Positions 9,050-50,556 of a stretch of DNA of 64,000 nt are shown in pieces. The DNA is from Eledone cirrhosa (Eukaryota). Within the stretch, counting starts at the first letter, position 1. The number at the start of each line of letters is the position of its first letter. The stretch spans positions 6,696,001-6,760,000 of the forward strand of contig OZ024760.1 of NCBI GenBank assembly GCA_964016885.1. The letters run 5' to 3'. Under the pieces are notes generated by a model, which worked only from the letters and a program-made list of their open reading frames with translations, had not been told where the DNA came from and ran no database searches. Position numbers and translations under genes: made by a program.

Positions 9050-9170
9050 TGTGTGTGTGTGTATATATAGTGTGTGTGTATAATTATATATATAGTGTGT
9101 GTGTATAATTATATATATAGTGTCTGTGTGTGTGTGTATATATATATATTGTGTGTGTATATATATATAT
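7960..9170. repeat. (TA)/(TG) compound microsatellite
   Basis: Alternating tata and tgtg blocks. Confidence 0.95.
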
Positions 9171-10309
9171 AGTGAGGAATTTAGTGAGGAATTCCAGATA
9201 CAAGTAGGAGTACATCAGGGTTCGGTCCTCAGCCCGCTCTTGTTCATTATAGTCCTCCAAGCCATAACAGAGGAGTTTAAGACTGGCTGTCCATGGGAAC
9301 TTCTCTATGCTGACGATCTGACTCTTATAGCAGAATCAGTAGAGGAGCTAGAGAATAAATTCCGGCTATGGAAACAGCAGTTGGAAGCAAGAGGACTGAG
9401 AGTAAATCTAGCTAAGACAAAAGTGTTGATGAGTAGAAAAGAGGACAAAACCCTGATTCCGTCAGGGAAATGGCCATGTTCGATATGCAGAAAAGGAACT
9501 GGCATAAATTCTATAAAATGCACACAATGCAGGTCCTGGGTACACAAGAGATGTAGCGGGATAGCAGGCAAACTAACAGGTAGGGAGAAATATGTATGCA
9601 GTAGATGTACAGGGAAATTAGACAGTAGAAGTCGCACTGATAGACACATTTTTCAAATGCGAGAGGGCGCTATAGAAGTGGTGGATAGCTTCCGGTACCT
9701 AGGAGATCTGATTAGCATGGGAGGAGGGTGTTCCGAGGCCATAGTATCTAGAATAAGGACGGGTTGGAAGAAGTTTAGGGAGCTGCTTCCTCTGTTGACG
9801 AAGAAGGGTTTCTCCCTGCGTACGAAAGGCCGGTTGTATGATGCCTGTGTGAGGAGCGCGATGCTGCATGGTAGTGAGACATGGGCAGCAACCGCAGAGG
9901 ATATGCGACGGCTGGAGAGAAATGAGGCAAGCATGCTCCGTTGGATGTGCAGTGTAAATGTGCGTGAACGACCCAGCATAAATGTGTTGAGAGAGAAACT
10001 GTGTCTGAGAGGGATAGAATGTAGTGTACAGGAGAGGAGACTGGGGTGGTATGGACATGTGATGCGCATGGAGGATGACCGATGGGTGAAGAAGTGCCAG
10101 GAAATGCCAGTTGAAGGAAGACGTGGTAGAGGTAGACCACGAAAACCATGGGCGGAGGTGGTGAGAACAGACCTCAGATCATTGAAGCTCACGGTGGAGA
10201 TGACGAGGGACCGTGACGAGTGGAGAGATGCTGTGCTGAATAAGACCCGTCCCACCCTTGCAAGCAGGGAAAAGCGGACGTAAAATGATGATGATGATGA
10301 TGATGATGA
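9171..10309 (+). mobile_element. 5'-truncated RTE-clade LINE (family A), RT C-terminal half with open frame
   Basis: GVHQGSVLSPLLF, LLYADD, C4HC3 finger, RRLGWYGHVMRM, GRGRPRKPW; stop codon abuts (gat)n tail; inserted in (TA)n. Confidence 0.95.
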
Positions 10310-26657: not shown

Positions 26658-29160
26658 TCATCATCATCATCATCATCATCAACGTTTAACGTCCGTGTTC
26701 CACGCTTGCATGGGTTTGGACAGGGGTAGTCCCACTTGAGGCAAGAGTGATTGTCTTGCTCGCATAGGACTGTCTGGCAGGTTTTCTACAGTTGGATGCC
26801 CTTCCTAACACCAACCACATTTACAGTGTGGGTCTGGGAGGTTTTTACCGTGTTGCCTTCACGGCCACATTACAGCGTGGACTGTGTGTTTTTTTGTCGT
26901 GACACCTACACGATCTCATTTGTTTCGCCCTGGATGGCGCGGCACCAACATAACTTTACATAGAACGGGGTGGTGTGGATGGGGTGGGGGTGGTGGCGGG
27001 ACGGGGTGTATTTTGTTAGAGATGCCTACTGGCAAGGCGGGTCTTCTCTGTTACTGAGTACCGCCAAAGGTCACGGTCCAGTGACATTGTCTTGGAGAGG
27101 TGTAAGTGTGTGAGGTCGGAGTTTATCAGCTCATCCCATGTTTTTCTAGGTCTGCCTATTCCGTGGCTACCGTCTATCTTTATTGCCCTGCACTTTGTAA
27201 TACAGCTATCGACTTTCATGCGCATCACGTGTCCATACCAACGCAGCCTTCTCTCGAGTAAACAACATCTAATCCCTCTTATCTCTAATTTTTTCCTTAG
27301 TTCGTTTATGCTTTGCCGTTCACGTATATTACTGTTACACATCCAGCGGAGCATGCAAGCTTCGTTCCTCTCTAGTCTGCGTATATCCTCTGCACACAAT
27401 GTCCAGGTCTCACTACCATGCAACATTGCTGTTCGTATGCAGGCATCGTACAACCTGCCTTTCATTTTTAGGGAGAACCCTTTAGCAGCTAATAGTGGTA
27501 TAAGCTCTCTGAACTTTTTCCAACCAGTTCTGACTCTAGCTACAGTACTTTCAGAGCACCCTCCCCCACTGCTGATTTTATCGCCCAGGTAACGGAAGCT
27601 GTCCACTATTTCTATAGAACCCTCTGCGCAATTGAAAGAGCTAGTATTTTGTGGGCACTTGCTGCTACTTATTGCACCAGAACACCGGCCACATGTAAAG
27701 TCTATGTTCTTAGTTAGCTTACCTGTGATCCCACTACATCTTTTATGCACCCATACTTTGCATTTAGGACATAAGATGGAGTTTCTACCTACGCCTTTCC
27801 TACATACCGAGCACGACCATTTCCCAGAAGGGACCGCCGCCTTGTTTTCTTTCCTACAAACTAGAACTTTGGTCTTAGCCAGGTTAATTTTAAGTCCTTT
27901 TGACTCTAGGCCGTGCTTCCATGTTTGGAATTTCTTCTCTAGCTCGGCCATTGATTCCGCTATGAGTGTCAGGTCGTCTGCGTATAGGAGTTCCCATGGG
28001 CAGCCTGTCTTGAACTCCTCTGTTATAGCCTGAAGGGCAATAATAAATAGTAGGGGGCTGAGAACAGAGCCCTGATGGACGCCAACTTTTACGCTAAACT
28101 CTTCACTATATTCGTTGTTAATTCTAACCTTGCTGACTGTTTCTTTATACATGGCTTGTATAGCCCTCACGAGCCATTCGTCAACGCCTAGTTTTCTAAG
28201 AGCCCACCAGATAATGGAGCGGGGGACTCTGTCGAAGGCTTTCTCCAGGTCGACAAAAGCTAAGTAGAGGGGTTTACCTTTAGCTAGGTACTTCTCCTGT
28301 AGTTGTCGTACTATGAAAAGAGCGTCTGTGGTGCTTTTGCCTGACACAAACCCGAACTGCATTTCATCTAGATCAATTCTCTCTCTGATTAGTTGCGCTA
28401 TTACTTTTTCTGTGACCTTCATGACCTGGTCGATTAATTTAATGCCTCTATAGTTACTCCTATCTAGGGCGTCTCCTTTACCCTTATAACAGTTAACGAT
28501 GATGCTGCTATGCCAGTCCTTCGGAACAACCCCATTCTGTACGACTTGGTTAACTATGCGGGTGACCATGGTGTGTCCCACCGTGCCAGATGCCTTCAGC
28601 ATCTCAGCAACTATTTCCGAAGGCCCAGCCGCCTTACCAGTCTTCATATCCTTGATTGCCTTACTTATTATACTCCCCTCGACTAACACTGCTGGTCCCT
28701 CTATCGGGTCGATATGGGGGAGACTGTCTTTCTCCCATTTATTCTCCTCATTTAGTAGCCTTTCATAGTGACACTTCCAAGCTACCTTCTTATCAGTGTC
28801 GGTGATGGCAAGTATGCCATCATCGTTAAGTACACACTTCTCCCCGACAATATCACGGTTTTTCCTTGACGCATTGCCTGGCAATCCTGAACACCTCACG
28901 TTTTTGGTCATCGCGTTGTAGAACATGCTTGAACTTTCTTTCCTCAGCTTTCCTTCTTGCTAAGTACACTTGTCTCCTAGCTTCCCTCCTGGCCACTTGA
29001 TAGTCTACTCTACTTCCCCCATCCCGCCATACTTTCCAAGCCTGCTTTTTGGCCTTAATTGACCCCTCCACCCTACTGTTCCACCACCATGTTACTCTCC
29101 TCCTGCCTACAGGCCTGCTCCAGCCACAGACTTCGTCTGTCGCCAACAGCAGGTTTGCTT
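26658..29160 (-). mobile_element. 5'-truncated RTE-clade LINE (family C); RT ORF 27016-28926 with a frameshift near 28860
   Basis: NYRGIKL, QFGF, AFVDLEKAFDRVP, GVHQGSVLSP, YADD, C4HC3 finger; about 340-bp 3' UTR and (tga)n tail. Confidence 0.95.
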
Positions 29161-31182: not shown

Positions 31183-34100
31183 TTAACCCTTAAGCATTTA
31201 AACTGGCCATATCCAGCCAGAATTCTATCACCACTTTCTGTTCAAACCGGTTGTAACCTGCTACTTATACTGATGTTAAGGTATTATTCTCAAAATAAAT
31301 AATATCAAAATCTCATAGATTCAATATTATGTGAGGTAAAGCTTTTACCTCACACTGAAAATACAATAGTATATATAGAGTAATGTAAATGTTATGTGAG
31401 GTAAAGCCTTTACCTCACACTGAAAATACAATAGTATATATAGAGTAATGTAAATGTTATGTGAGGTAAAGCCTTTACAATGAAAATACAATAGTATATA
31501 TAGAGTAATGTAAATGTTATGTGAGGTAAAGCCTTTACTGTGAAAATACAATAGTATATATAGAGTAATGTAAATGTTATGTGAGGTAAAGCCTTCACAC
31601 TGAAAATACAATAGTATATATAGAGTAATGTAAATGTTATGTGAGGTAAAGCCTTTACCATGAAAATACAATAGTATATATAGAGTAATGTAAATGTTAT
31701 GTGAGGTAAAGCCTTCACCATGAAAATACAATAGTATATATAGAGTAATGTAAATGTTATGTGAGGTAAAGCCTTTACCATGAAAATACAATAGTATATA
31801 TAGAGTAATGTAAATGTTATGTGAGGTAAAGCCTTTACCATGAAAATACAATAGTATATATAGAGTAATGTAAATGTTATGTGAGGTAAAGCCTTTACCA
31901 TGAAAATACAATAGTATATATAGAGTAATGTAAATGTTATGTGAGGTAAAGCCTTTACAATGAAAATACAATAGTATATATAGAGTAATGTAAATGTTAT
32001 GTGAGGTAAAGCCTTTACTGTGAAAATACAATAGTATATATAGAGTAATGTAAATGTTATGTGAGGTAAAGCCTTTACCTCACACTGAAAATACAATAGT
32101 ATATATAGAGTAATGTAAATGTTATGTGAGGTAAAGCCTTTACCATGAAAATACAATAGTATATATAGAGTAATGTAAATGTTATGTGAGGTAAAGCCTT
32201 TACTGTGAAAATACAATAGTATATATAGAGTAATGTAAATGTTATGTGAGGTAAAGCCTTTACCTCACACTGAAAATACAATAGTATATATAGAGTAATG
32301 TAAATGTTATGTGAGGTAAAGCCTTCACCATGAAAATATAATAGTAAATATAGAGTAATGTAAATGTTATGTGAGGTAAAGCCTTCACCATGAAAATACA
32401 ATAGTATATATAGACTAATGTAAATGTTATGTGAGGTAAAGCCTTCACCATGAAAATACAATAGTATATATAGAGTAATGTAAATGTTATGTGAGGTAAA
32501 GCCTTTACCATGAAAATACAATAGTATATATAGAGTAATGTAAATGTTATGTGAGGTAAAGCCTTTACCTCACACTGAAAATACAATAGTATATATAGAG
32601 TAATGTAAATGTTATGTGAGGTAAAGCCTTTACAATGAAAATACAATAGTATATATAGAGTAATGTAAATGTTATGTGAGGTAAAGCCTTTACCATGAAA
32701 ATACAATAGTATATATAGAGTAATGTAAATGTTATGTGAGGTAAAGCCTTCACCATGAAAATATAATAGTAAATATAGAGTAATGTAGATGTTATGTAAT
32801 GTAAAGCCTTCACACTGAAAATACAATAGTATATATAGAGTAATGTAAATGTTATGTGAGGTAAAGCCTTCACCATGAAAATACAATAGTATATATAGAG
32901 TAATGTAAATGTTATGTGAGGTAAAGCCTTCACACTGAAAATACAATAGTATATATAGAGTAATGTAAATGTTATGTGAGGTAAAGCCTTTACCATGAAA
33001 ATACAATAGTATATATAGAGTAATGTAAATGTTATGTGAGGTAAAGCCTTTACCATGAAAATACAATAGTATATATAGAGTAATGTAAATGTTATGTGAG
33101 GTAAAGCCTTCACCATGAAAATACAATAGTATATATAGAGTAATGTAAATGTTATGTGAGGTAAAGCCTTTACCATGAAAATACAATAGTATATATAGAG
33201 TAATGTAAATGTTATGTGAGGTAAAGCCTTTACCATGAAAATACAATAGTATATATAGAGTAATGTAAATGTTATGTGAGGTAAAGCCTTTACCATGAAA
33301 ATACAATAGTATATATAGAGTAATGTAAATGTTATGTGAGGTAAAGCCTTTACCATGAAAATACAATAGTATATATAGAGTAATGTAAATGTTATGTGAG
33401 GTAAAGCCTTTACCATGAAAATACAATAGTATATATATAGAGTAATTTAAATGTTATGTGAGGTAAAGCCTTCACACTGAAAATACAATAGTATATATAG
33501 AGTAATGTAAATGTTATGTGAGGTAAAGCCTTTACCATGAAAATACAATAGTATATATAGAGTAATGTAAATGTTATGTGAGGTAAAGCCTTTACCATGA
33601 AAATACAATAGTATATATAGAGTAATGTAAATGTTATGTGAGGTAAAGCCTTTACCATGAAAATACAATAGTATATATAGAGTAATGTAAATGTTATGTG
33701 AGGTAAAGCCTTTACTGTGAAAATACAATAGTATATATAGAGTAATGTAAATGTTATGTGAGGTAAAGCCTTTACCATGAAAATACAATAGTATATATAG
33801 AGTAATGTAAATGTTATGTGAGGTAAAGCCTTTACCATGAAAATACAATAGTATATATAGAGTAATGTAAATGTTATGTGAGGTAAAGCCTTCACCATGA
33901 AAATACAATAATATATATAGAGTAATGTAAATGTTATGTGAGGTAAAGCCTTTACTGTGAAAATACAATAGTATATATAGAGTAATGTAAATGTTATGTG
34001 AGGTAAAGCCTTTACTGTGAAAATACAATAGTATATATAGAGTAATGTAAATGTTATGTGAGGTAAAGCCTTTACCATGAAAATACAATAGTATATATAG

Positions 34101-36671
34101 AGTAATGTAAATGTTATGTGAGGTAAAGCCTTTACCATGAAAATACAATAGTATATATAGAGTAATGTAAATGTTATGTGAGGTAAAGCCTTTACCATGA
34201 AAATACAATAGTATATATAGAGTAATGTAAATGTTATGTGAGGTAAAGCCTTTACCATGAAAATACAATAGTATATATAGAGTAATGTAAATGTTATGTG
34301 AGGTAAAGCCTTTACCATGAAAATACAATAGTATATATATAGAGTAATTTAAATGTTATGTGAGGTAAAGCCTTCACACTGAAAATACAATAGTATATAT
34401 AGAGTAATGTAAATGTTATGTGAGGTAAAGCCTTTACCATGAAAATACAATAGTATATATAGAGTAATGTAAATGTTATGTGAGGTAAAGCCTTTACCAT
34501 GAAAATACAATAGTATATATAGAGTAATGTAAATGTTATGTGAGGTAAAGCCTTTACCATGAAAATACAATAGTATATATAGAGTAATGTAAATGTTATG
34601 TGAGGTAAAGCCTTTACTGTGAAAATACAATAGTATATATAGAGTAATGTAAATGTTATGTGAGGTAAAGCCTTTACCATGAAAATACAATAGTATATAT
34701 AGAGTAATGTAAATGTTATGTGAGGTAAAGCCTTTACCATGAAAATACAATAGTATATATAGAGTAATGTAAATGTTATGTGAGGTAAAGCCTTCACCAT
34801 GAAAATACAATAATATATATAGAGTAATGTAAATGTTATGTGAGGTAAAGCCTTTACTGTGAAAATACAATAGTATATATAGAGTAATGTAAATGTTATG
34901 TGAGGTAAAGCCTTTACTGTGAAAATACAATAGTATATATAGAGTAATGTAAATGTTATGTGAGGTAAAGCCTTTACCATGAAAATACAATAGTATATAT
35001 AGAGTAATGTAAATGTTATGTGAGGTAAAGCCTTTACTGTGAAAATACAATAGTATATATAGAGTAATGTAAATGTTATGTGAGGTAAAGCCTTTACTGT
35101 GAAAATACAATAGTATATATAGAGTAATGTAAATGTTATGTGAGGTAAAGCCTTTACTGTGAAAATACAATAGTATATATAGAGTAATGTAAATGTTATG
35201 TGAGGTAAAGCCTTTACCATGAAAATACAATAGTGTATATAGAGTAATGTAAATGTTATGTGAGGTAAAGCCTTTACTGTGAAAATACAATAGTATATAT
35301 AGAGTAATGTAAATGTTATGTGAGGTAAAGCCTTTACTGTGAAAATACAATAGTATATATAGAGTAATGTAAATGTTATGTGAGGTAAAGCCTTTACCAT
35401 GAAAATACAATAGTATATATAGAGTAATGTAAATGTTATGTGAGGTAAAGCCTTTACTGTGAAAATACAATAGTATATATAGAGTAATGTAAATGTTATG
35501 TGAGGTAAAGCCTTTACCATGAAAATACAATAGTATATATAGAGTAATGTAAATGTTATGTGAGGTAAAGCCTTTACTGTGAAAATACAATAGTATATAT
35601 AGAGTAATGTAAATGTTATGTGAGGTAAAGCCTTTACTGTGAAAATACAATAGTATATATAGAGTAATGTAAATGTTATGTGAGGTAAAGCCTTTACCAT
35701 GAAAATACAATAGTATATATAGAGTAATGTAAATGTTATGTGAGGTAAAGCCTTTACTGTGAAAATACAATAGTATATATAGAGTAATGTAAATGTTATG
35801 TGAGGTAAAGCCTTTACCATGAAAATACAATAGTATATATAGAGTAATGTAAATGTTATGTGAGGTAAAGCCTTTACTGTGAAAATACAATAGTATATAT
35901 AGAGTAATGTAAATGTTATGTGAGGTAAAGCCTTTACTGTGAAAATACAATAGTATATATAGAGTAATGTAAATGTTATGTGAGGTAAAGCCTTTACCAT
36001 GAAAATACAATAGTATATATAGAGTAATGTAAATGTTATGTGAGGTAAAGCCTTTACCATGAAAATACAATAGTATATATAGAGTAATGTAAATGTTATG
36101 TGAGATATTATGTGAGGTAAAGCCTTTACTGTGAAAATACAATAGTATATATAGAGTAATGTAAATGTTATGTGAGGTAAAGCCTTTACCATGAAAATAC
36201 AATAGTATATATAGAGTAATGTAAATGTTATGTGAGGTAAAGCCTTTACCAGGAAAATACAATAGTATATATAGAGTAATGTAAATGTTATGTGAGGTAA
36301 AGCCTTTACCATGAAAATACAATAGTATATATAGAGTAATGTAAATGTTATGTGAGGTAAAGCCTTTACCATGAAAATACAATAGTATATATAGAGTAAT
36401 GTAAATGTTATGTGAGATATTATGTGAGGTAAAGCCTTTACTGTGAAAATACAATAGTATATATAGAGTAATGTAAATGTTATGTGAGGTAAAGCCTTTA
36501 CCATGAAAATACAATAGTATATATAGAGTAATGTAAATGTTATGTGAGGTAAAGCCTTTACCATGAAAATACAATAGTATATATAGAGTAATGTAAATAT
36601 TATGTGAGGTAAAGCCTTTACTGTGAAAATACAATAGTATATATAGAGTAATGTAAATGCTGAAGGGTTAA
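31183..36671 (+). mobile_element. piggyBac-like MITE inflated by an internal satellite
   Basis: ttaacccttaagcattta ... taaatgctgaagggttaa termini. Confidence 0.8.
31326..36658. repeat. 60-bp satellite, about 5.3 kb
   Basis: gttatgtgaggtaaagcctttaccatgaaaatacaatagtatatatagagtaatgtaaat. Confidence 0.98.
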
Positions 36672-37020: not shown

Positions 37021-37243
37021 TCACTGGCCACTGATTTCTGTCCTTAGAGAATTTTTACCCAACTTACATCCTGTTGTCATTGACAATATTCGACTGTTTT
37101 AACAGTTATTCCTTGTGTTTGAGTTTTTCATATCATTCCTACAAATTTCAAATACACTCTCACTTCATCTAGATGATTTTTGAGACAACAATGTTTAAAA
37201 TAATTAATGATGAATAAATTTTTTTTTTCTTTCTCTTCTCTAG

Positions 37244-37347
37244 AATTTGGCATAATTTTAGGATGTCGTGTTTTTGTCAAAGAAATTATCAAACATAGCG
37301 TTGCAGCAGAGCAGGGTGGTTTAAAAGTTGGTGACACAATTCTGAAG
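37244..37347 (+). CDS. TJP1: ZO-1/TJP1-like exon (PDZ2)
   Basis: tctag|AA...AAG|gtaag; (E)[34 protein letters not shown]; phase 1 to 0. Confidence 0.95.
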
Positions 37348-40403: not shown

Positions 40404-42531
40404 ATCATCATCATCATCACCGTTTTACGTCCGTTCTTCCACGCTAGCATGGGTTAGACGGGTTGTCCTGTTGTGGGCAGTGTCTGGTCGGCTGACCATG
40501 CCTTGCTCATACAGGAACTGATCTGGCTTGATTTCTACAGCTGGATGCCCTTCCTAACACCAACCTCATTTACAGTGAGTGCTGGGTGCTTTTTCGTGGC
40601 GCCTACACGTCCACTTTACAGTGTGGGCTGGGTGCTTTTTTGCCGTGGCACCTCCACGACCACCTTGCGGTGGGGGGGGGGGGGGGCATATTGTTTATCT
40701 GCTTCAGCATGTACCCATGGGAGGTCGGGTACCCTGTATTACTGCGTGACGCCAGAAGTCACGGTCGTGTGTCATTGACTTTGAGAGGTGTAGTTGGGTA
40801 AGGTCGGCTTTTATCACCTCATCCCAAGTCATCTTGGGTCTCCCCACTCCACGGTTTCCATCAACTTCTAGTGCTCTGCACCTTTTTATGCAGCTGTCAT
40901 CCTTCATACGCATCACATGTCCATACCAGCGTAACCGCCTCTCCTGCACGCAGCATTTGATTCCTCTTATGCTCAGTCTCTCTCTCAATTCATTTATGCT
41001 TTGTCGTTCACGTATATTACTGTTACACATCCATCGGAGCATGCAGGCTTCGTTTCTCTCTAATCTACGTAAGTCTTCCACCTTCAGCGCCCAGGTCTCA
41101 CTACCATGCAACATCGCTGTTCGGATACACGCATCATACAGTCTGCCTTTCATTCTGAGGGAGAAGCCTTTTGCAGCTAGCAGTGGTAGTAGTTCCCTAA
41201 ACTTCTTCCATCCCGTTCTTACCCTAGTTATTGTACTTTCTGAGCACCCACCTCCGTTGCTAATTCGGTCACCTAGGTAGCAGAAGCTGTCTACTGTTTC
41301 TACAGGGCCCTCCCAGAGATTGGTGGTACTTGTTTCCTGTGGCTGTTTGCTTGCTGTTTCAGCACAGCTGCTGCATGTGAATCCTACATTCTTAATTAAG
41401 CTTCCTGAGATCCCGCTACATCTCTTGTGTACCCATTGTTTGCATTTGGGGCAAAGAATGGAGTTCCTACCTACACCTTTCCTACATACTGAGCAAGGCC
41501 ATTTCCCTGAGGGGATCTGGGTTCTGTTTTCTCGTCTACTTATAAGGACCTTAGTCTTTGTCATGTTGACTTTGAGGCCCTTTCTCTCTAGTCCCTGCTT
41601 CCAGGTTTGGAATTTATTCTCTAGTTCTACCATAGATTCAGCTATGAGTGCGAGGTCATCAGCATACAGGAGTTCCCATGGGCATCCGGTCTTAAACTCC
41701 TCCGTTATTGCCTGCAGGACTATGATGAACAGGAGAGGGCTAAGAACAGAGCCCTGGTGGACCCCAACCTGTACGCTAAATTCCTCGCTATACTCATTGC
41801 CAATCCTAACTTTGCTGACTGCTCCCCTATACATGGCTTGTACCGCTTTCACAAGCCATTCATCTACTCCTAGTTTTCTAAGAGCCCACCAGATTACTGC
41901 ACGTGGAACTCTGTCAAAGGCTTTCTCAAGGTCGACAAATGCCAGGTAGAGTGGCTTACTTTTAGCTAGGTACTTTTCCTGTAATTGCCTCACAAGGAAG
42001 AGCGCATCAGTGGTGCCTTTCCCTGGAACAAACCCAAATTGCATCTCGTCTATATTCACCCGGTCCCTAATCAGCTGTGCTATAACTCTTTCTGTTACTT
42101 TCATGACCTGGTCCATCAACTTTATACCTCTATAGTTTCCTCTATCTAGTGCATCGCCTTTACCTTTGTAGCAGTTGACAATGATGCTACTGCACCAATC
42201 TTTTGGTATGGCCCCCTCTAGTATTACCTGGTTAACGATACGTGTGGTTATAGTGTGACCTACAGACCCAGATGCCTTCAGCATCTCGGCAGCTATACCC
42301 GATGGACCGGTTGCCTTCCCTATCTTCATATCTCTGATTGCCTTACTTACTACGCTGCCGCTGACTTGTACTGCTGGTCCCTCTATAGGGTCTACGTGGG
42401 GTAGGGTCTCTTCTTCCCATGCATTCTCCTCATTTAGTAATCTATCATAATGACTCTTCCATGCATCTTTCTTCTCAGCACTTGTGAGGGCAAGCTCACC
42501 TTTATCATTCCGGATACACTTCTCTCCAATG
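40404..42531 (-). mobile_element. 5'-truncated RTE-clade LINE (family B) with uninterrupted RT ORF
   Basis: ORF 40704-42542 with full RT motifs and C4HC3 finger; about 290-bp 3' UTR; (tga)n tail. Confidence 0.95.
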
Positions 42532-45032: not shown

Positions 45033-45086
45033 ATTATAATAAAATAATAGGAGGCTGGACTGGTGTAAATCCTTGAAAGGTTTATT

Positions 45087-45144
45087 AAACTCTGATCATT
45101 TCAATGACCGGGTTCCGTATGAATCCGGTGACATCATCAGGTAT
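45087..45144 (-). ncRNA. Degenerate minimal hammerhead (paralogue of 54131-54188)
   Basis: atac-CTGATGA-stem II-GAAA-tgatca-GA-gttt; U16.1 mutated. Confidence 0.55.
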
Positions 45145-45308
45145 TCAAAACATAACAAAGGAATATAACAGATAAAATCCACGGGGCTGAAAATCATAGA
45201 CAAGAGGACAACTGACCATCTAGCATCCTCTACCTCAGTCGGTCGCCCTCCTCTATATATATATATATATATATATATAGTTATGTAATAAACAACATAA
45301 GGCAATTA

Positions 45309-45369
45309 TTTCATTTACCAGTGGTTTCTTAAAGGCAAAAAAATGTTGCTTTCAATCATCAGAATGAAA
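45309..45369 (-). ncRNA. Type I hammerhead ribozyme, left arm of fold-back
   Basis: tttcatt-CTGATGA-ttgaaagcaa..ttgcctttaa-GAAA-ccactgg-TA-aatgaaa. Confidence 0.75.
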
Positions 45370-45394
45370 AAATCCTAGTCTTTTTTCAGGATTT

Positions 45395-45455
45395 TTTCAT
45401 TCTGATGATTGAAAGCAACATTATTTTGCTTTTAAGAAACCACTGGTAAATGGAA
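45395..45455 (+). ncRNA. Type I hammerhead ribozyme, right arm of fold-back
   Basis: ttcatt-CTGATGA-ttgaaagcaa cattatt ttgcttttaa-GAAA-ccactgg-TA-aatgga; GUA triplet. Confidence 0.78.
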
Positions 45456-45551
45456 TAATTGCCTTATGTTGTTTATTACATAACTATTAAGCTCTGTTAC
45501 CTACATAGAGCACTCTTTTTTCCTGGACTTTTCCGACGGAATTACTTCATT

Positions 45552-45856
<305 letters not shown>

Positions 45857-45922
45857 ATTAATAATGAAAAATTACCTCCTGGTTCAATCTGTATCGATCA
45901 TGCTCGACTCTGGAATTAAAAG

Positions 45923-46750
45923 CTCATCAGACTTCTGTTGTGGTAATTACCACATTTGCTCGTCAGACTTCTGTTGTGGTAATTACCACATTTGCTCGTC
46001 AGACTTCTGTTGTGGTAATTACCACATTTGCTCGTCAGACTTCTGTTGTGGTAATTACCACATTTGCTCGTCAGACTTCTGTTGTGGTAATTACCACATT
46101 TGCTCGTCAGACTTCTGTTGTGGTAATTACCACATTTGCTCGTCAGACTTCTGTTGTGGTAATTACCACATTTGCTCGTCAGACTTCTGTTGTGGTAATT
46201 ACCACATTTGCTCGTCAGACTTCTGTTGTGGTAATTACCACATTTGCTCGTCAGACTTCTGTTGTGGTAATTACCACATTTGCTCGTCAGACTTCTGTTG
46301 TGGTAATTACCACATTTGCTCGTCAGACTTCTGTTGTGGTAATTACCACATTTGCTCGTCAGACTTCTGTTGTGGTAATTACCACATTTGCTCGTCAGAC
46401 TTCTGTTGTGGTAATTACCACATTTGCTCGTCAGACTTCTGTTGTGGTAATTACCACATTTGCTCGTCAGACTTCTGTTGTGGTAATTACCACATTTGCT
46501 CGTCAGACTTCTGTTGTGGTAATTACCACATTTGCTCGTCAGACTTCTGTTGTGGTAATTACCACATTTGCTCGTCAGACTTCTGTTGTGGTAATTACCA
46601 CATTTGCTCGTCAGACTTCTGTTGTGGTAATTACCACATTTGCTCGTCAGACTTCTGTTGTGGTAATTACCACATTTGCTCGTCAGACTTCTGTTGTGGT
46701 AATTACCACATTTGCTCGTCAGACTTCTGTTGTGGTAATTACCACATTTG
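45923..46750. repeat. 36-bp homogeneous tandem array (23 copies), hammerhead-derived
   Basis: ctcgtcagacttctgttgtggtaattaccacatttg x23; 828 bp. Confidence 0.95.
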
Positions 46751-46804
46751 CGAAACACACGTCACACCTCAATAAATCTAATGAAGATCTAACACTTTGT
46801 CCTT

Positions 46805-46975
46805 CAGTAGAGGGTCGGAAGCCATGCTTTCCAGCAGAGTTACGTCCTTTTATGGTCTGAGTTCAAATCCTGCTGAGGTTAACTTTGCCTTTCATCCTTA
46901 CGGGGTCGATAAAATAAAGTACCAGTAATGCACTGGGTTATTGCTGGCCTTGTGCCAAAAGTAGAAACAATTGTT
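46805..46975 (+). mobile_element. Meta-like tRNA-SINE, 5'-truncated
   Basis: gttcaaatcc...gtagaaacaatt. Confidence 0.8.
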
Positions 46976-47112
46976 ATTAGTATTACACTCTGCTTAGTAC
47001 AACACCAATATACCGACTGGAAACTACGCATCAAGTACTCACTCTTGTGAACCTACAGTAGCTGGACATTACGATCACTAAATATATATCTATTGTTATA
47101 TTTGGAGAGGGT

Positions 47113-47904: not shown

Positions 47905-48055
47905 ATCAATGCTACCCCTGTCGATAATCTTTCAATAACTGATGCTAAACGATTAATAGAAAAAACAAAAGACAAACTCCATTTATTGATTACCAAGAAG
48001 AAGACAGATGGCGGCAGACACAAGAGACAGAATAGTCAACCAAAGGATGAAATTG
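47905..48055 (+). CDS. TJP1: ZO-1/TJP1-like exon (PDZ2 C-terminal half)
   Basis: tccag|ATC...ATTG|gtaaa; INATPVDNLSITDAKRLIEKTKDKLHLLITKKK...; phase 0 to 1. Confidence 0.95.
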
Positions 48056-48339: not shown

Positions 48340-49347
48340 CTCCACGTCTTCTTCTTCTTAAGAGGGTCGTGGGGGAAGAGTCCTGTCAGAAGCAGCCATC
48401 TACAGCTGATCCAGCTGGGTCCCCAAGCAAGATCAGCCAAGCTCATGGATGTTATTCAACCATCTTACTCGAGTTCTACTCCTGGGTCTCCTGCCAGTTG
48501 GTTTTGCCCATAAAATCAGTCTAACAATTCTTTCCTGAGACATTCTAACCACATGCCCATAGTATCTGAGCTGTGATCTCTCAATTCAGAGAAGTAGCGG
48601 CTCAATTTGGAGTGACACTCTGATCTCCGAGTTACAAATCTGTCCAGCAATTCTTTCTTGAGACATTCTAACCACATATCCATAGTATCTGAGCTGTGAT
48701 CTCTCAATTCAGAGAAGTAGCAGCTCAATTTGGAGTGACTCTCTGATCTCCGAGTTACAAATCTGTCCATCGATTCTTTCCTGGGACATTCTAACCACAT
48801 GTCCATAGTATCTGAGCTGTGATCTCTCAATTCAGAGATGTAGCGGCTCAATTTGGAGTGACACTCTGATCTCCGAGTTACAAATCTGTCCAGCAATTCT
48901 TTCTTGAGACATTCTAACCACATGTCCATAGTATCTGAGCTGTGATCTCTCAATTCAGAGAAGTAGCGGCTCAATTTGGAGTGACTCTCTGATCTCTGAG
49001 TTACAAATCTGTCCATCGATTCTTTCTTGAGACATTCTAACCACATGTCCATAGTATCTGAGCTGTGATCTCTCAATTCAGAGAAGTAGCGGCTCAATTT
49101 GGAGTGACACTCTGATCTCCGAGTTACAAATCTGTCCAGCGATTCTTTCTTGAGACATTCTAACCACATGTCCATAGTATCTGAGTTCTGATCTCCGAGT
49201 TACAAATCTGTCCAGCGATTCTTTCTTGAGACATTCTAACCACATGCCCATAGTATCTGAGTTCTGATCTCCGAGTTACAAATCTGTCCAGCGATTCTTT
49301 CTTGAGACATTCTAACCACATGTCCATAGTATCTGAGCTGTGATCTC
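48340..49347 (-). repeat. Degenerate RTE-like 3' fragment with 123-bp tandem expansion of its coding sequence
   Basis: LRYYGHVVRMSQER in repeat unit; GRRPRSRTRVRWLNNI downstream; (gaa)n tail. Confidence 0.75.
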
Positions 49348-49367
49348 TTTTTCTCTTTTTCAATTAG

Positions 49368-49655
49368 ATTACTCATCTCGATACGGGATCTTAAAGAGAT
49401 CAATAGACAAAGAAGATATCAATATATACCGACCTCATCAGAGTAGGGTATTAAGTGAAGATGAGACAAATTCACTTGGACCCGGTCTACATCGTATGCA
49501 CCATTCTCATGGTGACATTCTACCCCCTGGACCTGGCCCAATTACTGCGAGCCGCGATCACCCTAATGCATCGTCCCGGTATGAAAGTCGGTACATGTAC
49601 AATCAAGAACCACCCCCACCACCACGGCCACCTTTACCCCTAGAACTGGATTCAG
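49368..49655 (+). CDS. TJP1: ZO-1/TJP1-like exon (PDZ2-PDZ3 linker, Pro-rich)
   Basis: attag|AT...TCAG|gtaaa; open 288 nt, (D)YSSRYG...EPPPPPRPPLPLELDS; phase 1 to 1. Confidence 0.85.
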
Positions 49656-50135
49656 GTAAAAACATTTTTTTTTATATCTTCTGACATTAAACAAAAGATT
49701 TTTTTAAATATTAAATCAGGGATTTTTGACAATAAAAACAGGAATTTTGGGGAGTAAAACCAAAGATTTTTTTAATATTAAATCAAAATTTTTTTTACAC
49801 TAAACCAAGGATTTTTGACACTAAAATGAGAGATTTTAAAAATTAAATGAGGTGGGTTTTTTTACACTAAACTAAGAAGTTTTGCTCGAAAGCAGCGATT
49901 TTTTTTTTACTCTAAACTAAATATTTTTTACACTAAACCCTGGATTTTTTATATTAAACCAAAATTTTCTTTACACTAATCTGGGCACTTTTTACTCTAA
50001 ACGAAGGGGTTTTCTGAAACTAAATTGGGGTTTTTCTAACACAACACAAAACCAGGGGTTTTTTTTACACAAAATCAAGGGTTTTCTGACACTAAATCAG
50101 GGGGTAACAAAAAAGTTAATTCTCTTCTATTTTAG

Positions 50136-50424
50136 ATATGGTCCCAACAAGTAAAGACTTCTTACATCCAGATGACTTCTATGCCTCACAAGTGAAACAC
50201 AACAACTACTACAGTGACATTGAGAATCGGGGTCACTTGCACGAGAACCCCTATGAATCAAGAGAGGAGCGGTATGGCACGGTGCCTCGGCAACGACACT
50301 CGGACCAGCTCCTCGAGTCACACTATGAGAGAAGTCCACAAGCCCATAAACAGCCTTATAGCAGCAAGGAACAGGAGAACGATATACAAGCCCCTGTTAG
50401 TTTCACCAGGTCACAACCATCGGA
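50136..50424 (+). CDS. TJP1: ZO-1/TJP1-like exon (PDZ2-PDZ3 linker)
   Basis: tttag|AT...TCGGA|gtaagt; (D)MVPTSKDFLHPDDFYAS...TRSQPS(E); phase 1 to 2. Confidence 0.85.
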
Positions 50425-50556
50425 GTAAGTGTTCAGCTCCTTACCCTTCTTTTTTCCTTTATCTCTCCCTCTCTCTTTTTCTATTTATCTGTCTGTCTCT
50501 ATTATCATCTCTCCCACTTCTCTCTCTCTCTCCCACCTCTCTTTCTCTCTCTCTCT

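Follow-up and report, generated by a model that had tools for sequence, protein, structure and literature searches.

A near-perfect 36-bp minisatellite at an inversion joint within a putative Penelope-like end piece of Eledone cirrhosa

Introduction

An array of 36-bp repeats in the genome of Eledone cirrhosa raises the question of how 23 units, all but one of them identical, came to stand between two halves of a hammerhead-like motif that lie on opposite strands. The initial annotation of this DNA explained the array as a single burst of reverse transcription, in which iterative template jumping at the palindromic stem II of a split hammerhead ribozyme produced the copies in a telomerase-like manner. 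The analysis described here covers the locus, the window (the whole stretch of 64,000 nucleotides in which it lies) and the 3.0-Gb assembly to which the window belongs and in which all genome-wide searches were made. Growth of the array in place, at the level of DNA, is found to be the most probable answer.

The array and its unit

The minisatellite (45922–46749, plus strand) was delimited by repeat finding and by mapping onto the repeat family described below, and consists of 23 units of 36 bp. Units 2–23 are mutually identical, and unit 1 carries one mismatch, at its fifth base, which is a CpG-decay change without counterpart in the other units. The count of 23 copies with a single base off in the first, as given by the initial annotation, is borne out by this unit-by-unit comparison and by TRF (period 36, 23.1 copies, 99%). 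Such an array is far outside what chance would give. Adjacent copies have an identity of 0.999, against 0.886–0.969 in 7 other complex minisatellites of the window, and a very recent or very fast expansion of the array is thereby supported. Genome pattern searches match the array at this one locus only (controls 0). The sequence of the unit matches 31 of 104 family loci and so derives from a dispersed element. In run X1, which carries the same species label and is possibly the source sample, the unit has a depth of ~60, while the 8 dispersed contigs listed have 2–11; the value is consistent with a multi-copy array, contigs giving no copy number. No contig of three further runs (X4, X5 and X6) covers the unit, and contigs cannot show absence.

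Each unit is formed from the reverse complement of q29–q4 of the family consensus (numbered q1–q144), a 5-nt fold-back (TACCA) and q81–85. The GC that opens it is the reverse of q28–29 and also corresponds to q86–87, the pair closing stem II in the family, and the same 2-bp microhomology brackets the whole array at 45922–45923 and 46750–46751. Every unit contains a 16-bp perfect palindrome (45939–45954 in unit 1), which consists of the 5' end of the element joined head to head with itself. This palindrome is found nowhere else in the genome, and as DNA the unit is predicted to form a hairpin of −4.9 kcal/mol.

The minus strand of each unit carries CTGACGA, so that CYGANGA occurs 23 times on the minus strand of the array and 0 times on the plus strand. 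The plus strand leaves the array as GAAA-C-ACAC-GTC-ACACCTC-AATAAA (46752–46776). Both features had been recognized in the initial annotation and both are present; its description of a split hammerhead holds in that the halves of one Penelope-like motif lie on opposite strands, and fails in that the palindrome is the fold-back joint of an inversion and not a hammerhead stem II. The 11-nt 5' arm assigned to that stem exists on the minus strand only, and the plus-strand reading of this DNA supplies the supposed 3' arm, which makes the pairing trivial: a tandem unit read on both strands will always appear to rebuild a stem. The core parts do not share a strand, CYGANGA being on the minus strand and the GAAA that follows on the plus strand, and CYGANGA followed by GAAA is absent from either strand of 45861–46810. 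Neither strand of the locus can by itself fold into a hammerhead, and a function is unlikely. An unrearranged progenitor, the absence of which had been set beforehand as a refutation of the burst, was sought with the 21-nt core; this occurs 23 times in the assembly, always in the array (control 0).

Arms, flanking repeats and the host intron

The array is held between two arms that map to adjoining parts of the family end piece. The left arm (45872–45947, minus strand) is the inverted 5' half, q4–q79, with 11 of 76 bases off the consensus, and holds CTGATGA together with the 5' arm and the loop of the long stem II. The right arm (46745–46804, plus strand) is the forward 3' half, q81–q140, with GC-GAAAC-ACAC-GTC and AATAAA, and is off the consensus at 7 of 60 bases. 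The arms are two complementary halves of one hammerhead-like motif. Exact searches of the genome with arm haplotypes of 25 and 30 nt give one occurrence each, and thus neither a young sister nor a source copy. ATTACC (45871–45876, plus strand), at the left limit of the inverted segment, is identical to q4–9 of the family and is possibly a trace of template switching between imperfect inverted repeats, if a weak one, since ATTACC is shown at q75–80 by one of 87 family copies.

Outside the arms, sequence comparison identifies an inverted SINE-like repeat (45665–45860, minus strand) of a kind that often comes next after the family end piece, and which may be of tRNA type, with A and B boxes. A forward, 5'-shortened copy of the same repeat (46807–46970, plus strand) differs from the left copy at 19 of 164 aligned bases. 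It is followed by a 3' extension ending in (TA)n (46976–47085, plus strand), which also occurs after the motif at loci L048, L062, L073, L080 and L150.

The host intron of the array interrupts the coding sequence of a ZO-1/ZO-2-like PDZ domain. The upstream exon (37240–37347, plus strand, ends approximate) encodes the first part of the domain (E 4.7e-05, ZO-1 PDZ residues 11–52), and the downstream exon (47905–48055, plus strand), with splice signals, encodes the second (E 3.1e-05, ZO-2 PDZ residues 46–80). Exon-like frames of the ZO-1-like gene are seen on the plus strand at 16535–16705, at the two PDZ exons, and at 49337–49681 and 50120–50425; the two PDZ pieces were compared with the PDB, and the remaining frames are known from translation alone. 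The array could serve as a marker in this intron.

The window holds further repeats of related appearance. CTGATGA...GAAA is present on both strands in a further head-to-head pair at 45277–45560, which lies 360 bp to the left of the array and belongs to a different family. A regex scan for CTGANGA...GAAA gives additional matches at 45040–45250 (minus), 54184 (minus), 52654 (minus) with 53200 (plus), 53541 (minus) with 53782 (plus), and 3031 (plus). Judged by the motif, these matches, some of which form opposite-strand pairs, are probably other Penelope-like end pieces. ORF-like fragments on either strand at 9096–10280, 17380–18138, 27020–28683 and 40750–42146 are presumably LINE reverse transcriptases. 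Six more large minisatellites lie at 13529–15529, 18710–19305, 22079–23239, 31323–36659, 48513–49195 and 61643–64000, and minisatellite units of 85 bp and 48 bp match dispersed repeats elsewhere in the window and at other loci.

The donor family

Genome searches with the right exit and with the minus-strand left flank both lead to one dispersed family, in which the two pieces are adjacent in intact copies (40 of 518 and 40 of 1096 candidates, respectively, were scored). A 25-nt degenerate motif has 179 exact matches in the genome (control 0), and 40 loci fetched from among the 100 listed of these provide a set picked by the 3' motif only. The family end piece, for which 87 copies were aligned, is ~140 bp long and comprises a 5' leader, CYGAYGA, GC, a long insert, GC-GAAAC-GCGC-GTC, ACACCTC and AATAAA, after which a T-run gives way to (ATT)n or (TA)n. 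Head-to-head pairs are formed at 21 of 82 family loci; the set picked by the 3' motif has them at 7 of its 40 loci. The aligned copies diverge from the consensus by 10.7% on average, with a minimum of 5.3%.

By these features and by the coding remnants upstream of it, the family and its hammerhead-like motif are identified as the putative 3' end of an old Penelope-like element. The longer copies have ~670 bp of C/A-rich upstream sequence in common. In L091, L098 and L104 the decayed end of a GIY-YIG-type ORF lies upstream, collinear and in the same sense as the 3' UTR and the motif; L093 and L094 have the 3' UTR part, and L103 carries the ORF end inverted. The remnant with VY..YIG..FK..NH and CxxC is recognized in L103, L091 and L098, the linker of the family resembles C-x-C..C types, and the ORF remnants are full of stops. 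RT-like motifs occur only in L084, where 2.2 kb with several inserts lies between them and the 3' UTR of the family; they are possibly part of another family. The thumb/linker part of L103 matches this RT-like region (E 7e-16). A homologous peptide of L084, again possibly of another family, has neighbours in the ESM Atlas with GIY-YIG on 12–18% of members, and Pfam returns nothing significant for two L084 peptides from the ORF remnants.

ORF pieces near family copies in L097, L101, L099 and L084 were rejected as proof of linkage, as their Penelope-like families are different or uncertain. At L084:2825–3833 (minus), L097:2948–3346 (minus) and L101:1838–2089 (plus) there are remains of further Penelope-like ORFs, which have a CxC..C..C linker and a GIY-YIG end. 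Another inverted-pair repeat, beginning GACCCCGACGGCTGAGCTC..., is often nested in (TA)n beside the family (L091, L101, L090, L085 and L073). The same microsatellites seem to have accumulated several Penelope-like families.

The hammerhead-like motif of the family

In the family, the counterparts of the type I hammerhead core elements CUGANGA, GAAA and NUH are present in order, around a branched stem II region of ~59 nt; a permuted hammerhead was considered and rejected, as the parts stand in the canonical order. A consensus of 42 copies selected through the 3' motif has C at position 4. Among 70 ungapped copies the dinucleotide at this position is CG in 31, TG in 25 and CA in 10, and because both decay products, TG and CA, are seen the position was probably C, which would make the ancestral core CCGACGA (U4C). 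A U4C change lowers hammerhead activity, according to the available part of one report (PMC3088659).

The helices are paired in 89.3% of cells of the family alignment, and in 21–39% when the alignment is slid. Covariation of the hammerhead fold shows no excess over shuffles (398 of 500), and RNAalifold keeps only a 4-bp inner hairpin of the family alignment. The Rfam gathering threshold yields no hammerhead in the window. When hits up to E 10 were allowed at 10 family loci, one Hammerhead_1 match was obtained, and at 17.4 bits (E 8.7) it is below threshold and was not counted. Long family copies (alignment A1, L044–L148) tend to have a better-paired variant of stem II. The assignment of the motif as a hammerhead is plausible but unproven. 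With its long branched stem II and its probable U4C core, this putative ribozyme of the donor family is of modest side interest.

Age of the array and of its arms

The arms and the array differ strongly in their state of decay. The arms depart from the consensus at 18 of 136 bases and the array at 1 of 828 (Fisher p 3e-15); CpG decay has affected 6 of 10 sites in the arms and 1 of 23 in the array (p 0.001). When the comparison is limited to rare changes away from the joints, the values are 3/122 and 1/828 (p 0.0075). All three p values are from Fisher tests, as a Poisson test with the arm rate taken as known overstates significance. The nearest of the 87 aligned copies differ from the arms by 8–12%, and part of the divergence of the arms may go back to a source copy outside the sample.

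Because the arms are decayed and the array is intact, the homogeneity of the array appears from these comparisons to have arisen after insertion of the element. The units themselves carry older changes. All 23 have CpG-type changes at q22 and q85, and all have a change at q83 that is found in 0 of 85 copies and, as q81–85 stand at the joint, may date from its formation. A single burst of reverse transcription at insertion would have given arms and array of one age, and is contradicted by the decay of the arms beside a near-perfect array; what survives of the burst in the initial annotation is an expansion that was very recent and fast, and which came long after insertion, given the aged arms and the changes shared by all 23 units.

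Arrays at other family loci

The initial annotation proposed a search for similar arrays at other pLTR junctions, and the head-to-head family loci offer no such case: a reiterated joint is seen at 0 of 21. TRF finds an array over the motif at one of 104 family loci, L105, where four tandem copies of the family 3' half and the flanking (TA)n are arranged with a period of 120–144 bp (L105:1771–2305, C10). As the flanking (TA)n is included, these copies were made in DNA.

Genome pattern searches for short-period arrays find the 5' piece of the family only at the array locus and the middle piece in none. The 3' piece gives one real array (C21:5380212, L150) and an unrelated-looking match, L149. 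The L150 array (L150:1474–1957, C21:5380186–5380669) consists of 11 units of 44 bp with 1 mismatch, formed from the family 3' half (GAAA-stem III-GTC-AATAAA), and lies 1.36 Mb from the 23 × 36 bp array on the same chromosome. It is inside a forward copy that likewise has the inverted and the forward SINE-like repeat on its flanks, and it contains neither a palindrome nor a CUGANGA half. Four CpG-decay changes are present in every unit, in a combination found in 0 of 87 copies. L150 indicates that near-perfect arrays arise in aged family copies without a stem II jump.

Origin of the array

The array is best explained as a single-locus, transposon-derived minisatellite at an inversion joint, expanded recently by slippage or unequal exchange at the DNA level, and this reading is held with good confidence. 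A template switch, at insertion or later, would have flipped the 5' half of the end piece and left the 16-bp palindrome joined to q81 through a CA microhomology. In this context it is of relevance that a purified Penelope-like element extends both DNA strands, as described in the accessible portion of one study (PMC11167929). By the flip, the closing GC of stem II, which is self-complementary, would become a direct repeat of 2 bp with a spacing of 36 bp, and these GC repeats around a hairpin could seed a duplication. Slippage or unequal exchange would then multiply one unit to 23, with homogenization still ongoing, and unit 1, at the edge, would keep its CpG-decay change. Some observations count against this explanation. 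Besides the possible inheritance of arm differences and the position of the q83 change at the joint, the seeding microhomology is only 2 bp, and the homogeneity is far above that of the 7 neighbouring minisatellites, so that the expansion, by whatever enzyme, must have been very recent or very fast.

An unlikely variant is that the template switching behind the inversion also produced the first duplication, to 2–3 units, at insertion, and that DNA turnover later expanded and homogenized it. The unit spans the inversion joint exactly, the CpG decay limited to unit 1 makes the first duplication older than that change, and initiation of repeats has been linked to retrotransposition activity in the available text of one survey (PMC3389668); set against this, the joint is duplicated at none of the 21 head-to-head loci, TRF finds a motif array at only one of the 104 family loci, and L150 arose without any joint. 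It is very improbable that an active Penelope-type reverse transcriptase later reiterated the unit in place, taking host intron RNA of the aged copy as template at a break and adding ~22 units in one event. Near-perfect homogeneity and an intronic, and so likely transcribed, position would suit such an event. However, the 87 aligned copies include no young one, the remnants of the ORF do not read through, no dispersed daughter of the unit exists in the genome, and L150 is equally homogeneous with different ends. In a literature search no reiteration or template jumping by Penelope reverse transcriptases was apparent by title or from the start of the abstract, which is not proof of absence. If late reiteration were nevertheless true, a sister enzyme of TERT would for the first time be seen to have left a genomic trace of telomerase-like repeat addition, and L150 would be another such event on the same chromosome; any bearing of the locus on the origins of telomerase comes only from such RNA-templated readings of low probability.

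An assembly artefact that multiplied a single unit would account for perfect copies of a hairpin-forming sequence. The depth of the unit in X1, well above that of the listed dispersed contigs though giving no copy number, speaks against it and leaves it with very little probability. The telomerase-like burst at insertion, with jumping at the palindromic stem II of a compact hammerhead, has hardly any: it would suit the homogeneity of the array, the motif halves on opposite strands and the Penelope-like origin, and is opposed by a palindrome that is not stem II, by the age difference between arms and array, and by the absence of a progenitor from the assembly. The features that would mark reiteration at insertion, namely array and flanks of equal age, a progenitor template and recurrence at other insertions, are lacking here. 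The DNA-level minisatellite is therefore the reading carried into the comparisons below.

Comparison with known systems

A literature search combining octopus, Penelope and minisatellite returned only one general review, which is not proof of absence from print. Telomerase synthesizes repeats by reiterating a template, and so produces many identical short units. The array resembles this product, as it does repeat synthesis by template reiteration in DRT2 in the available account (PMC12039810). It differs from both systems in that no dedicated template RNA, young RT partner or second addition site is found and the unit comes from aged DNA. Metazoan non-LTR retrozymes (10.64898/2026.07.22.740005, available text) likewise form tandem arrays related to the hammerhead of PLE pLTRs. 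They are characterized by a complete hammerhead in at least 2 consecutive units and by dispersed monomer copies, whereas the unit here is 36 bp long, contains no complete hammerhead and is not dispersed, and the array falls outside their definition.

The insertion itself is reminiscent of the head-to-head pLTR insertions of EN+ PLEs (PMC4209133; PMC8557442), for which the accessible parts of these reports describe inverted, 5'-truncated partner copies as typical of Penelope-like elements (PMC8557442) and opposite-strand hammerhead pairs 100–700 bp apart (PMC4209133). As in these systems, the motif follows a C-terminal GIY-YIG remnant and is close to the 3' end, with a small palindromic helix III (AC-GCGC-GU), a short helix I, an inverted 5'-truncated partner and (TA)n neighbourhoods. 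Unlike the hammerheads so described, the family has a branched stem II of ~59 nt and an ancestral core that was probably CCGACGA (U4C), and unlike their pairs the arms at this locus are complementary halves and not two overlapping copies. The joint is similar to short template-switch inversions, in the portions of two studies that were available (PMC5453318; PMC8604942), in that the inversion is local, its palindrome perfected and its joints marked by microhomology; in comparison with these, the timing here would be either at insertion or at a replication fork.

The closest parallel is with the single-locus, transposon-derived minisatellites of human, where, in the available text of the survey, 7,276 of 31,472 minisatellites derive from transposons, most of them at a single locus, and retrotransposition is suggested as a possible starter of some of these repeats (PMC3389668). 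Minisatellites of this class are taken here as head-to-tail units of >20 bp with an identity of at least 95%, and the present array, with 1/828 differences, falls among them. It similarly has a unit from part of a transposon, occupies one locus, would have expanded in place, and has units that resemble one another more than they do any other copy; it differs in its Penelope-like donor and in a unit that lies across an inversion joint with a 16-bp palindrome. The array is thus an ordinary minisatellite, and a clean example of how an inversion in a decayed Penelope-like end piece may provide both the hairpin and the microhomology from which a tandem repeat is seeded.
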